A stretch of DNA of 42,184 nucleotides from a virus. Lineage: Duplodnaviria; Heunggongvirae; Uroviricota; Caudoviricetes. The first letter of the stretch is position 1, and every line of letters starts with the position of its first letter. The position numbers are program-made. Location: IMG/VR virus record IMGVR_UViG_2579779052_000008, positions 1 to 42,184 of that record; one strand, given 5' to 3'. Shown piece by piece: positions 36,001-42,000 of this stretch.

Positions 36001-39000
36001 CCATATCCCGCCATCTCGCCACCCCCCCCTTCGCTCGTTTTTCGAACTTTTCAGCACCCATCCTGCTGTTGCCACCGACTTAAGTAAGCAAAACCATCGC
36101 GGGTAAAACTATTTACACAAAAAAATCATACACATAACGTGTCACACCTTTATTTTACACATTTTGTGATTGACCATTAAATCACAATATGTGACTATCA
36201 TTTCCATCAGCAGGACGCTGGAAGCCAAACGGAACAGATTGGCAGGCTCTTTAACATCGACGGACTCTCAACCTAACCGTTGAGACCAGAACTTGAGTGG
36301 TTTTGGGGATGGCGCGAATTGCAGCTGCAAGACAGCGATCGAGAAGATAAGCACCTCGACGCGTCATGCGCCAAAGCCACTTAAAGGAGACCATCATGGT
36401 AACCATTGTCTGGAAAGAATCCAAAGGTACGGCAAAAAGCCGCTACAAAGCTCGCAGAGCAGAACTTATTGCCGAGCGACGCAGTAATGAAGCACTGGCG
36501 CGAAAAATTGCGCTAAAGCTCTCTGGTTGCGTCAGGGCAGATAAAGCAGCATCACTCGGAAGCCTTTGCTGCAAGAAGAAAGAAGAAGTCTTTCGAAAAA
36601 ATAGAAGTATTTATTACAAGGATTCAAACCCATTAGGAAACAAAATACATGCAGTCCAAAAAGTAAAATTGTACGGTAAACTACCGTACGGTGCTTATTG
36701 AGTATGCTTATGGTGAAAAAGACTATTTATGTTAATCCTGACCGCGGACAAAACAGAAAAGTATCTGATAGAGGCCTTACATCTCGAGACAGGAGGAGAA
36801 TAGCGAGATGGGAAAAGAGAATGGCATATGCATTAGAAAACGGTGTAACACCTGGATTTAATGCTATAGATGACGGTCCGGAATATAAGATTAATGAAGA
36901 CCCAATGGACAAAGTTGACAAAGCATTAGCAACACCATTTCCTCGCGATGTCGAAAAAATTGAAGATGAAAAATATGAGGATGTAATGCACAGAGTTGTT
37001 AATCACGCTCACCAACGAAACCCAAACAAAAAGTGGTCATAACCAGCTCAGGCGGATTTCATTTTCACGCAAACAACAGAATAAACACTGCACTGTGTAT
37101 TCATTCCGACGAGTGAATACACGGAGCAATGTCGCTCGTAACTAAACAGGAGCCGACTTGTTCTGATTATTGGAAATCTTCTTGGCCCTCCAGTGTGAGG
37201 GCGATTTTTTATCTGTGAGGATATGAACAGATGTCAAACATCAAAAAATACATCATTGATTACGACTGGAAAGCATCAATAGAAATTGAAATCGACCATG
37301 ACGTAATGACAGAGGAAAAACTTCACCAGATTAATAATTTCTGGTCAGACTCTGAATACCGACTCAATAAACACGGCTCTGTATTAAATGCTGTATTAAT
37401 CATGCTGGCGCAACATGCTTTGCTTATAGCAATTTCAAGCGACTTAAATGCATATGGTGTTGTGTGTGAGTTCGACTGGAATGATGGAAATGGTCAGGAA
37501 GGATGGCCTCCAATGGATGGTAGCGAAGGAATAAGAATTACCGATATCGACACATCTGGAATATTTGATTCAGATGATATGACTATCAAAGCCGCCTGAG
37601 CGCGGCTTTACCGCATACCAATAATGCTTCACGAGAGGCATTTTCGTTATGCAATCAAATATAAGGAGTTACCCATGATGCACTTTCAGCTCGCGGGTAG
37701 CGGCGTCATGTCCGCTTTCTACCCGCACGAATCTGAATTATCACGCCGAGTTAAACAATTAATCAGAGCAGCAAAGAAACAACTGGAGGCGTTATGCGCA
37801 ATGAAATAGCCATTAATCACCAGATGCTTCGTGCTGCACAGAACAAAGCAGTAATAGCCCGATTTATTGGTGATTCAAAAATGTGGCTTGAAGCAAATAA
37901 AGCGATGAAATCAGCTATCAACCTTCCGTGGTATCGCAGGAAATGAGTTTTACAGATAACTGGTCAGACGAAGAATTCATTCGTCAGATGAAAGATTTAA
38001 TCGGTAACGAAGGAGATATTCATGTCACTTGCAACCACAGTGAAGGAGAGCAAGTTACAGAGACGCATGTACACGCAGCAGGCGTTAATGTATCGCCAGA
38101 AGGGAGATCGTGAAGGTGTTCGCGTATTTTTAAATGCGGCAAAGACTGAAGTATTAAATCAGCGTTATTTACTTGGGCCGTGTCCATTCTGAGGTGAATT
38201 ATGGATTTGAACAAATTCGATGAGCCATTCAGCCCTGAAGATATCGAATGGCGAATACAGCAAAGCGGTAAAACACGCGATGGCAAGGTGTGGGCCATGG
38301 TGCTGGCTTATGTCACGAACCGGGCAATCATGAAACGCCTGGACGATGTTTGCGGCAAAGCAGGATGGCGCAATGAATACCGCGATATTCCCAACAACGG
38401 CGGAGTTGAATGCGGCATATCAATCAAGATTGATTCCGAATGGGTAACCAAATGGGATGCTGCTGAAAACACGCAGGTAGAAGCCGTCAAAGGCGGTCGT
38501 TCCGGTGCAATGAAGCGCGCTGCCGTTCAGTGGGGAATCGGTCGGTATCTGTATAACCTTGAGGAAGGTTTTGCACAAACATCTCTCGATAAAAAGCAGG
38601 GATGGCACAGGGCAAAACTGAAGGATGGAACAGGATTTTACTGGCTCCCTCCATCGCTGCCGGGATGGGCAATCCCAGCATCAGATAACAAACCATCACC
38701 AGAAAATACCAACCAGAAATCTCCATCGGTTGACTGCGAACAAATCCTGAAAGACTTCAGCGATTATGCGTCAACAGAAACTGACAAGAAAAAACTCATC
38801 GAGCGTTATCAGCGTGACTGGCAATTAATGGCTGGCAACGAGGAGGCGCAGGCTAAATGCGTTCAGGTAATGAACATCAGAGTTAACGAACTAAAACAGG
38901 CGGCATAAATGTCTCACTTGGACGGAATTATTAAAAGATTCGAGTCCAGCTACAAAGTTAATGAAACAACAGGTTGCTGGGAGTCTACCTATTCAAAAAA

Positions 39001-42000
39001 CAAAGGAGGATACACAAAATTTGTAGCCTTTGGCGTAACAATGCTTTCTCATCGGGTTGCTTTTGAGCTTTATCACTCCCCCATTCCATCTGGGAAGATG
39101 GTTTGCCACAAATGCGATAACCCATGCTGCGTTAATCCTGAACATCTCTTTTTAGGTAGCGCGCAAGAAAACATGGACGACAAGATAGCAAAAGGAAGGC
39201 ATCGTGGAGCCAAGAAAGGTCATGCTCATCATGGTGCAAAATTAACAGAGTGGCAGGTTATAGAAATTAGGAAAAGACTCTCTGAAAAAGAGAGTCAGTA
39301 CAAGATAGCAAAAGACATGGGTGTATCTCAATCAATTATAAGCAACATAAAAACTGGCAAGAGGTGGAGCAAATGAGTTCTCGCGGGATAAATAAGGTGA
39401 TTATCCTTGGTCGGGTAGGACAAGACCCGGAAGTTCGATACTCACCATCAGGAACAGCGTTCGCTAACCTGACAATAGCCACGTCAGAACAATGGCGAGA
39501 TAAAAATACTGGCGAGCAAAAGGAATTGACTGAATGGCATCGTGTTGCTGTATCCGGGAAACTGGCTGAGGTCGTGGGGCAGTATGTGAAAAAAGGTGAT
39601 CAGATTTATTTCGAGGGAATGCTGAGAACCAGAAAGTGGAAAGACCAGTCAGGGCAAGACCGTTACACAACCGAGGTTCATGTCGGAATTAATGGCGTGA
39701 TGCAAATGCTTGGCGGCATTGGCGACAGTAAACAACAAGCAGCCAGCAGGCAATCACAGAAGCCACAGCAGCAATCATCACCAGCACAACACAACGAACC
39801 TCCGATGGATTTTGACGACGATATACCCTTTGCACCAGTAACTCTCCCCTTCCCTCGTCACGCTATTCACGCAATTTAATCAGGAGAAAATCATGCCAGC
39901 GCCTCAGTATGGTGCGGATGACCCGCGCCGCTGTTCCGGCAATTCCGTATCGGAGGTGCTGGATAAATTCAGGAAAAACTACGACCGGATAATGTCGCTA
40001 CCGCAGGAAACGAAAGAGGAAAAGGAATTTCGCCATTGTATATGGCTTGCAGAGAAAGAAGAACGCGAGCGAATTTACCAGACATCAATCCGACCATTCC
40101 GCAAAGCCACATATACCCACTTCCCTGAATATATCGACCCTCGCCTGCGTAATTACCGCTCACGCTATGGCGCTATCAGTAATGACTGAGGAATTTACTA
40201 TGAGAGGACTTGCATACAATCCCGGCATTCTTCCGGCAGAAATGATTATTCGCCAACGCGTAAAGCCAATGCCATCGAGAGAGGAATTGCTTAAGAGAAA
40301 TTCTTTTCCATCAGTGAATCAAAACAAATATCTGAATGCGATGTGGCGCAAAGGAGGCAGCCAGTGACTAACCGTTTTTACATGATGTGCTCGCGTGAAA
40401 CTGTGGGCAATAACGCTTCATTCCATTGCCATAACGGCAATGGTTACAGTTCTGATATCGATCGCGCTCATGTTTACACGCTGGAAGAAGCCCAAAAAGC
40501 CTGGAATTGTGGGCGAGATATCGATCAGCCTGTTTGCGCTGATAGCGTGGATGCAATGGCAGTGTGGCACGTTGATTGCCAGTACATCCCTACAGAAAGC
40601 CTGATTGAGTCAGATTGCACTGCGTATGTGGCCTACAAAAAAGGTAGCTGGAACGGCAACGATGTTTACTGGCTTCAACACGGTGGATTGCCAACAGATG
40701 ACTTCAGTAAAGCGACCATCTTTAGCGTCGCCAACAAAAACGAACCAGGAATAGTTTGGTTGCCATTTTCCATTGCTGATGCAGCAAAGCGCAGGACGTT
40801 CAATATCAATAACTTTAACCGCAGAACAATGGTTCAGGGCGCAGGTTTGGTCATGCCTGACTGGTTGAAAGAGCAGAACAGAAGAAAGAAGTCGCGAAGC
40901 GGGAAGGTGCGTTGGAATTGTCCGCATTGCGGAAAAATCTCCTGGCAGTACAGCCCATATGATTTTGAAGGCTGTAGTGATTACAACTGTGAAGGATGGC
41001 GAGAATGACAATTGACTATCAGGCACTGCGTGATGCGGCAGAAGCAATAAAAATAGCAGCCACACCACAAAAATTGCTGGCATTTCGTATGAAGGTCACA
41101 CCTCAGGTTGTGCTGGCACTACTGGATGAACGGGAAAGGAACCAGCAATACATCAAATCCCGCGACCAGGAGAACGAGGAAATTGCGCTAACGGTAGGGA
41201 AGCTGCGCGTTGAGCGGGAGGCAGCAAAAAAACGCATAGCAGAACTGGAAGCCGAACCTGTAAGCCAAACTTACAAGTTGCCTTCCCTGCCATCCAGCGA
41301 AGTAAACGACGCGGCATGGAAATTACACAACATGCTGACTGAACACGGCCCGCTAAATGGGCGTCAGTTCAGCAATCTGAAAGGTTGCTTCTATGAGGCA
41401 TTAAAGGTCGCAATGCGCAACTATCCGGTAACTCCGGATAGTTGGATAAGCTGTAGTGAGCGAATGCCGAACGATAAACAGTATGTTTGGTGTTGGGGTA
41501 AGTCTTACGGCTGGACTGAGTGCGATACCTTCGAAGGGTATTACGATTGGTCGAGAAACAAATGGTGGGCAGTTACTGACAATGGGGAAGAACCGGCATC
41601 GAAAGTAACCCACTGGATGCCGCTACCGGAGCCGCCGCAGGAGGTTAACCGTGGCTAACCTGCAACTTGCCGTCAAAGGTGAATAACAATCCTCGCACTC
41701 GCGGGGATTTCTTTTATCTGAACTCGCTACGGCGAGTTTTGTTTTATGGAGATGATAAATGCACTTCCGAGTCACAAGTGAATGGAATGGAGAACCATTC
41801 AACAGAGTTATCGAAGCAGGGGACATCAACGACTGCTATGCCCACTGGATGCTGTGGGCGCAGATAGCACATGCAGACGTAACCAACATTCGAATTGAAG
41901 AACTGAAAGAACACCAAGCCGCCTGATGGCGGTTTTTTATTGCCTGATTTGCAGGTTCGATTCCCTATTCGGAGATAGCACTCATGCAACACGAACTACA

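Follow-up and report, generated by a model that had tools for sequence, protein, structure and literature searches.

I-HmuI, a homing endonuclease encoded in a group I intron of a phage DNA polymerase gene, has a beta-beta-alpha-metal nuclease at its N-terminus and a helix-turn-helix at its C-terminus. As a monomer it binds an asymmetric site of considerable length, where it nicks one strand, and in mixed infections it excludes flanking markers. The Seg and Mob proteins of T4-like phages (for example SegG and MobE) are encoded by intergenic homing endonuclease genes (HEGs) that are optional among close relatives, and they cut in a neighbouring conserved gene of genomes without the HEG. Recombinational repair, accompanied by co-conversion, spreads these HEGs, and polymorphisms of the target site in the host genome protect them. 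Here we describe an HNH open reading frame (ORF) in the Escherichia coli prophage IMGVR_UViG_2579779052_000008. The whole stretch of 42,184 nt, called the window in the following, was analysed, and coordinates are positions in it. The ORF (38909..39376, plus strand; ATG start, 155 aa, taken from the ORF list) lies between a gene for a Rad52-like single-strand annealing protein and the phage ssb gene. It is probably a free-standing HEG of the HNH_3/I-HmuI-like type, that is, a selfish insertion which separates the annealing-gene stop codon from the ssb start codon. Elements of this kind are well known; the locus adds a new and well-delimited member.

In several respects the window gene resembles these systems, and in others it does not. 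I-HmuI and I-HmuII from the Bacillus phages SPO1 and SP82 (PDB 1U3E) fall into the same His-Me finger group as the window protein, and I-HmuI was its best fold match. However, the two sequences are only about 16% identical, and the window protein contains a Cys-rich motif, CHKCDNPCCVNPEH, as a putative zinc site. Whereas the I-HmuI gene is situated in a group I intron, the window gene is free-standing. The initial annotation had spoken of a mobile-intron-like insertion; this has to be abandoned, and an intron-encoded HNH gene was rejected likewise, because Rfam found no intron or other RNA family around the HNH gene, which lies between two ORFs. With the Seg and Mob HEGs the window gene shares the presence/absence pattern, the intergenic position and the recoded codons in the neighbouring gene. 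Yet the Seg proteins are GIY-YIG enzymes, the Mob proteins form another HNH group and both occur in virulent phages, while the window gene is located in a temperate lambdoid prophage. Unlike theirs, its insertion is seamless, with 0-nt spacers and a stop/start overlap, and the apparent co-conversion patch measures about 13-17 nt.

The left neighbour of the HNH ORF, the annealing gene (38201..38908, plus strand), matches Rad52_Rad22 (E 5e-26) and phrog_1097 (E 3.5e-130) and its product has an Erf-like C-terminus. On the right follow the phage ssb gene (39373..39879, plus strand), which encodes a bacterial-type SSB (E 1.7e-36), and, as the rest of the recombination module, the P22-type anti-RecBCD gene abc2 (39893..40189, plus strand; Pfam Anti-RecBCD_p2, E 3.5e-61). 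Both genes beside the HNH ORF are full length. The TAA of the annealing gene (38906-38908) is followed by the HNH ATG with a 0-nt spacer, and the HNH TGA (39374-39376) shares the sequence ATGA with the ssb ATG at 39373. The initial annotation, which had placed the HNH gene exactly between the Rad52-like gene and ssb with its stop overlapping the ssb start, is thus borne out by the ORF, by the Pfam and PHROG matches and by the spacing. ATG 39373 is the ssb start in all homologues; none of them uses the GTG at 39364 given by the ORF lister.

The HNH ORF is placed in the early-left (pL) operon, and no sigma-70-type promoter-like site was found on its strand, either directly 5' of the gene or inside it. 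A Shine-Dalgarno-like motif for ssb, GGTGGAG, is located within the 3' end of the HNH gene, and via the ATGA ssb would couple translationally to the HNH ORF. In empty alleles it is ssb itself that uses the TAA-ATG start context, which in filled alleles is used by the HNH gene. Since the HEG takes over this context and provides ssb with a new Shine-Dalgarno-like motif and the ATGA overlap, the architecture of the operon is preserved. Inside the HNH ORF there is also a perfect 8-bp hairpin, GACTCTCT-GAAAA-AGAGAGTC (39276-39296, about -13 kcal/mol), which on the minus strand is terminator-like with a T-rich tail. It was taken as a chance occurrence, because homologues do not have it and terminator-like sites in the region are no commoner than in shuffled sequences.

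The protein matches Pfam HNH_3 (PF13392) over residues 48-89 with 51.0 bits (cut-off 24.8, E 1e-13) and PHROG HNH-endonuclease families with a best E of 2e-33; the match to zf-His_Me_endon was below the Pfam threshold. HNH_3 and zf-His_Me_endon are grouped with I-HmuI in the same His-Me finger group (PMC5714182). The Pfam match, the invariant columns and the model agree on a beta-beta-alpha-metal nuclease core at residues 48-89 (39050..39175, plus strand). All 16 residues that are invariant in an alignment of 60 homologues are kept in the window protein (C23, R49, H67, C69, D70, C74, N76, P77, H79, L80, F81, G83, N88, D91, K95 and R97), as are C66 and H48, which are conserved in at least 90% of these homologues. 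Judged by motif, we propose H67 as the general base, N76 as the structural and N88 as the metal-ligand Asn, and Cys66, Cys69 and Cys74 together with His79 as zinc ligands.

In the AF2 model (pLDDT 90), strands 64-67 and 80-83 and helix 85-94 form the beta-beta-alpha core. A basic linker and the helices 114-125, 130-137 and 141-149 follow, which would make up a C-terminal three-helix helix-turn-helix DNA-binding module (residues about 111-150; 39239..39358, plus strand). HTH_38 matched this part with 18.5 bits, which is under the Pfam cut-off, and helix-turn-helix matches were also obtained with PHROG, together with regulator families, and with Foldseek. The top matches of the Foldseek search against the PDB were the homing endonucleases I-HmuI (1u3e, over the full length) and I-PpoI, with a probability of 0.99. 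The only PADLOC match for the gene was the generic 'homing endonuclease' model, and PADLOC found no defence-system partner genes adjoining it. By its domain score, its residues, its predicted fold and its putative DNA-binding module, the protein fits His-Me finger group 2 (HNH_3/I-HmuI-like).

The initial annotation had suggested a comparison with relatives lacking the insert. In the phages mEp235, HK75 and mEpX2, the flanks are 98.9% identical to those in the window, but the span is 1,215 bp as opposed to 1,679 bp in the query. In the annotation of all three the annealing gene and ssb abut directly, and the alignment contains a clean 464-nt gap. Exactly 464 bp are thus lacking, which gives a candidate homing site. 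The insert, as aligned with mEp235, Huey and Sf6, corresponds to 38909..39372 (plus strand), with boundaries that are ambiguous by the 5-nt AAATG present at both junctions. Among 5,426 complete E. coli genomes, 407 matched the module; 40 of these carry the full insert and one carries a truncated copy, which belongs to a decayed prophage. In about 90% of the E. coli prophages with the module, the annealing gene and ssb abut without the HNH gene. All E. coli copies of the insert are at least 99.6% identical. None of 50,697 phage records covered at least 80% of the stretch from the annealing gene through ssb with the HNH gene, and a tblastn search of sequenced phages returned no relative above 62% identity. 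The insert is a precise presence/absence polymorphism among close relatives, as is typical of free-standing HEGs. Universal presence at a fixed position had been named beforehand as an argument against homing; the position is indeed fixed, but the gene is far from universal (41 of about 407 module-bearing E. coli genomes).

Filled and empty alleles also differ in the first codons of ssb. Codons 1-6 of the window gene (39373..39389, plus strand) read ATGAGTTCTCGCGGGAT, in contrast to ATGGCAAGCAGAGGCGT in the empty alleles, as found in the alignments and in IMG/VR. This patch comprises 10 substitutions within 13 nt (ssb nt 4-16, codons 2-6). Three codons are changed synonymously (Ser3 AGC>TCT, Arg4 AGA>CGC, Gly5 GGC>GGG), while Ala2 is replaced by Ser and Val6 by Ile. 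The change of Ala2 to Ser follows from the ATGA overlap, which forces the first base of codon 2. As an explanation of the whole patch, however, the overlap was rejected, since it fixes only this one base and leaves the three synonymous changes unexplained.

The patch is strictly linked to the HNH gene. All empty alleles examined have ATGGCAAGCAGAGGCGT at the ssb start, across three strongly divergent ssb types, and all filled ones have ATGAGTTCTCGCGGGAT. Among the matches listed for E. coli genomes, the 14 that include ssb nt 1-16 are all under or next to the HNH gene, whereas none of the 46 HNH-less matches includes these nucleotides; they begin at nt 17. In IMG/VR, searched with 2.9 million contigs, the patch occurred in 28 contigs, each with the HNH 3' end directly upstream. 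The empty site was present in at least 120 contigs, and the end of the annealing gene was never found joined straight to the patch, so that no empty site with the patch occurred in this set. A second HEG subtype, 74% identical, has the same boundary when compared with the empty Salmonella phage S9-5. This phage is an independent empty counterpart of the Citrobacter subtype; beyond about nt 19 its ssb has 95% identity, but the start is unrecoded. For the ERF-type filled locus (L015), megablast against sequenced phages gave no close empty counterpart, and therefore there is no matched pair for the ERF subtype.

On the left side, the end of the annealing gene, GAACTAAAACAGGCGGCATAA (38888..38908, plus strand; encoding ...ELKQAA and the stop), is conserved in filled and empty loci and is proposed as the left homing half-site. 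GAACTNAAACAGGCGGCRTAA precedes both HEG subtypes, beside Rad52-type as well as ERF-type genes, in all enterobacterial filled loci examined, with single-base variants, and the left flank is also present in most of 119 empty sites. With the recoded ssb start, the allele that carries the HEG has an altered version of the putative target, and the patch may confer immunity.

The history of the insert differs from that of its flanks. Among six filled loci, the HEG had a mean pairwise divergence of 0.47%, compared with 2.0% in the annealing gene and 18% in ssb. Segregating sites numbered 6 of 464 in the insert and 35 of 708 in the annealing gene (Fisher p = 6e-4). With about four times less divergence than the annealing gene, the HEG has spread recently, and faster than its flanks. 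The G+C content of the insert is 40.9%, that of the flanks 48.7% and 48.3%. Two ssb allele types exist, each on filled and on empty loci, and no flank site on either side is fixed between filled and empty alleles. These comparisons indicate that the insert is younger than the flanks and decoupled from them, as would result from recent horizontal spread. Filled loci differ from one another in chromosomal site, immunity region and neighbour genes, and in whether a DnaQ-like exonuclease is present. Among the 28 filled loci in IMG/VR, 22 have the window-type HEG, combined with no fewer than four different ssb alleles or tails, and six have the 74%-identical subtype beside Rad52-like or ERF-type annealing genes. 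The 155-aa ORF is intact in the five full-length E. coli copies that were compared and in the 28 IMG/VR copies, and the rare substitutions are mostly at third codon positions. Taken together, the optional presence, the linked patch, the low divergence and the lower G+C content support the proposal of the initial annotation that the gene is a free-standing homing endonuclease gene.

Two copies of the HEG exist in the enteropathogenic E. coli (EPEC) strain E2348/69, in two otherwise different prophages at the ybhC and the torI/csc sites; the second one was located via another O127:H6 record. Both encode the HNH protein variant WP_000018648.1. The two prophages (L004 9035-13810 and L035 6035-10807) have a common tract of 4,776 bp, which is 99.87% identical, begins 966 bp before the insert and ends about 3.3 kb behind it; it reaches from the annealing gene to a DUF551 gene. 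This indicates a recent exchange between the co-resident prophages, and the tract fits a conversion within the cell. No second partial HNH copy was found near the first E2348/69 copy, nor within the window. In the nin region of one E2348/69 prophage (L004 375-524), a 150-bp HNH-motif fragment, annotated as a pseudogene in RefSeq, lies between two ninF copies; it has no DNA similarity to the ssb-adjacent HNH gene.

Such exchange could suggest that the insert is a former HEG which no longer cuts, or never targeted this site, and which is passively shuffled by homologous recombination in the flanks. Recombination is frequent here: besides the ssb allele types on filled and empty loci there are recombinant ssb genes (for example in FHI_NMBU_03 and Z0117EC0117), the tract common to the E2348/69 prophages reaches far beyond the insert, and no isolated phage carries the insert. 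Yet the invariant catalytic and zinc-site residues are all intact, and the ORFs are intact with mostly third-position substitutions, the truncated copy being confined to a decayed prophage. Passive shuffling would also have to accommodate the four-fold lower divergence of the HEG and the three codons replaced by maximally different synonymous ones, which are hard to get by drift. We therefore consider a merely passive element improbable.

Homologues of the HNH protein with 51-74% identity are encoded directly upstream of ssb, with overlapping stop and start codons. Identity is 74% in Cronobacter/Enterobacteriaceae and Citrobacter, 62% in Vibrio phage 1.079.O, 60% in Shewanella and one other element, and 51% in a further one. 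The gene upstream of them differs and is of the Rad52 type, the ERF type, RdgC-like, Gp157 or of unknown type. A homologue with 44% identity is placed in an unrelated context. This distribution suggests a specialisation of the whole clade, its 51%-identical member included, on the beginning of phage ssb genes. Further HNH_3 genes, in part with a helix-turn-helix, were observed elsewhere in related early-left operons: S9-5 has one ahead of its annealing gene (L033 393-863), ES18 has one after ssb (gp47; L026 3718-4239), and a Cronobacter-type prophage has one further downstream (L016 7670-8179). The HNH_3 family seems to have settled at several positions in these operons.

The slot downstream of ssb deserves a closer comparison. 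ES18 gp47, Sf6 gp26 and Huey CDS0028 are optional genes of the same recombination module as the window gene, but they follow ssb instead of preceding it. ES18 gp47 belongs to the same HNH_3 plus helix-turn-helix family as the window protein (35% identity, E 6e-24) and is a paralogue in a different slot, whereas Sf6 gp26 and the Huey protein are unrelated classical HNH proteins in the slot of ES18 gp47. The SSB of the window has a tail (39832-39876) of 15 residues beyond the canonical ...DFDDDIPF tip. The last 14 of them equal the C-terminus of the classical HNH proteins encoded after a shorter ssb (ending in ...DIPF) in Sf6 (gp26, L003 2692-3171) and Huey (L002 2686-3153). Either a classical HNH gene was inserted into the ssb tail, or an HNH deletion fused the 3' end of that gene onto ssb. 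In E. coli prophages with a 474-nt ssb, a gap of roughly 500 bp after this gene, unannotated in RefSeq, contains an intact ORF for a 160-aa HNH protein of the Sf6 gp26 type (L008, from Z0117EC0117, 4939-5440; L012 and L013, both 4783-5284). Because of this ORF, ssb in Z0117EC0117 is bracketed by two different HNH genes. These arrangements suggest that there is an insertion hot spot on either side of ssb and not a pair of dedicated partners.

The alternative is that the HNH protein is not selfish but a working nuclease of the recombination module, which supplies the Rad52-like annealing protein and SSB with nicks or ends. This is in line with the tight packing of the gene, with its presumed translational coupling to both neighbours, the annealing gene and ssb, and with the HNH-ssb adjacency kept down to 51% identity in several genera. 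A survey of lambdoid Rec modules from 2025 lists HNH proteins as a fourth nuclease type (PMC12315714). It regards the ES18 HNH protein as 'very likely' a legitimate module member because of tight packing, and at the same time cautions about the mobility of HNH genes (PMC12315714). However, about 90% of the modules do without the gene although their annealing genes and ssb genes are otherwise 98-100% identical, and these include the plaque-forming phages mEp235 and HK75. A regular partner of the annealing protein and SSB would hardly be limited to about 10% occupancy in E. coli prophages and be found in none of the sequenced phages with the module. The gene is present independently of other nucleases, together with a DnaQ-like 3'-5' exonuclease in M9 and with the Sf6 gp26-type HNH in Z0117EC0117. 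In the small sample available many modules have no nuclease, and in the same sample the HNH gene is not complementary to the other module nucleases. The gene has a lower G+C content and near-zero divergence, the recoded ssb patch would not be needed by a cooperating nuclease, and the protein family is typical of homing endonucleases. A role as module nuclease is thus unlikely.

A further possibility combines homing with an effect on the host. The endonuclease may mainly recognise the first ~20 nt of bacterial-type ssb genes and, on induction, also nick or cut the ssb of the host, while the recoded ssb of the phage would be spared; the gene would then serve for homing and, built around SSB, also for host takeover or addiction. 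Across the examined members of the clade, which range from Escherichia to Vibrio and Shewanella, conservation at the protein level is limited to one context, M-S/A-x-R-G-I/V-N-K-V at the SSB start. In its first 20 nt, ATGGCCAGCAGAGGCGTAAA, the chromosomal ssb of E. coli has one mismatch to ATGGCAAGCAGAGGCGTAAA of the empty phage site, and since only 1 of 20 nt differs from the empty right half-site, the host gene might also be cut. From the recoded phage ssb (39373-39392) the host gene differs at no fewer than 10 positions (for example NZ_AP018488.1 5223878-5223951). The host ssb start is at least 99% identical over the 74-nt query in 5,421 of 5,426 E. coli records. We regard this dual role as quite doubtful.

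Very improbable is an anti-phage defence or superinfection-exclusion nuclease expressed from the prophage to protect the lysogen: HNH nucleases do occur in many defence systems and cutting an incoming related phage at the ssb start would exclude it, but the HNH gene should be silent in the lysogen because it lies inside a repressor-controlled early-left operon with no promoter-like site of its own found just upstream or within, and PADLOC gave only the generic homing-endonuclease model and no adjoining partner genes.

Several points weigh against a free-standing HEG. For the HNH protein and all its close relatives, cleavage and homing are deduced from comparison. The fold match to I-HmuI and I-PpoI is weak (Foldseek E 2e-3, TM about 0.38), although a low TM is as expected for a flexible two-domain protein such as the one modelled here, and when the PDB was searched by sequence, the best match was an unrelated designed protein (E 0.04), which is not meaningful. 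None of the sequenced phage isolates with the annealing-ssb module has the insert; these are about 16 distinct isolates among the 40 matches listed. Over 17 nt, linkage would be expected in the absence of selection, too. The HNH-ssb adjacency conserved across genera could mean a functional gene pair. The long and asymmetric E2348/69 tract is equally compatible with ordinary recombination between prophages, and the free recombination of lambdoid phages could carry a passive insert into many backgrounds.

If the gene is a free-standing HEG, as we think probable, its cycle may be envisaged as follows. The HEG would be expressed from the early-left operon in lytic growth or on induction. The 155-aa protein, probably a monomer like I-HmuI with an N-terminal beta-beta-alpha-metal nuclease and a C-terminal helix-turn-helix, would bind the empty junction of GAACTNAAACAGGCGGCRTAA and ATGGCAAGCAGAGGCGTAAA in a related phage, either co-infecting or co-resident, and nick or cut it close to the ssb start. 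The break would be repaired by recombination with the HEG-carrying genome, probably aided by the annealing protein and SSB encoded in the flanks. This repair would copy the HEG and a short adjoining patch into the empty genome, and the patch and the separated half-sites would make the filled allele immune to self-cleavage.

The window contains two other HNH genes. Both had been reported in the initial annotation and do exist, but they are on the minus strand, which had not been stated. The first (23289..23639) is a classical HNH gene (PF01844, E 3e-16) of the packaging-associated type. It lies directly upstream of the Terminase_4 small-subunit gene (22669..23172), as in the HK97 gp74 type, and its description as terminase-associated was correct. 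According to Kala et al. 2014, as far as cited in PMC12315714, HNH proteins of the HK97 gp74 type have a role in packaging. In contrast to this PF01844 type, the ssb-side HNH gene is of the HNH_3 family and about 15 kb away from the terminase. The second (26672..27184) is another HNH_3 gene by Pfam, combined with an AP2 domain. It lies between the Q antiterminator gene and the tRNA/holin region, with the genes for tRNA-Thr (26462-26537, minus strand) and tRNA-Asn (26543-26617, minus strand). At least 80% of this region was covered in 37 of 1,837 matching E. coli genomes, and in strain E148 the flanks are 98.3% identical while the span is about 700 bp shorter. By these comparisons the HNH_3 plus AP2 gene is optional, too, and probably a second free-standing HEG of the prophage.

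As to the prophage itself, a tRNA-Arg(CCT) gene (1126-1198, plus strand) is found near the left end of the window, and a TorI/AlpA-like excisionase ORF (41984-42184, plus strand) extends to its right end. This suggests that the window spans almost the whole of a prophage integrated at a tRNA-Arg locus. ARAGORN predicted in addition a tRNA-Ala(CGC) within the early region (34361-34443, plus strand).

Filled and empty alleles together define a candidate homing site of about 40 bp, GAACTNAAACAGGCGGCRTAA joined to ATGGCAAGCAGAGGCGTAAA. As the alleles differ only by the 464-bp insert and the 13-nt patch, cleavage and homing are directly testable with existing phages and strains. For the lambdoid recombination modules, the findings are evidence against counting this HNH gene as a core nuclease, a matter which the 2025 survey had not decided, although it inclined to the opposite view because of the tight packing (PMC12315714). 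They point instead to a clade of HNH_3 endonucleases at the ssb start of phages from several gammaproteobacterial genera. Such ssb-start endonucleases could skew the spread of recombination-module alleles among prophages residing in one cell.

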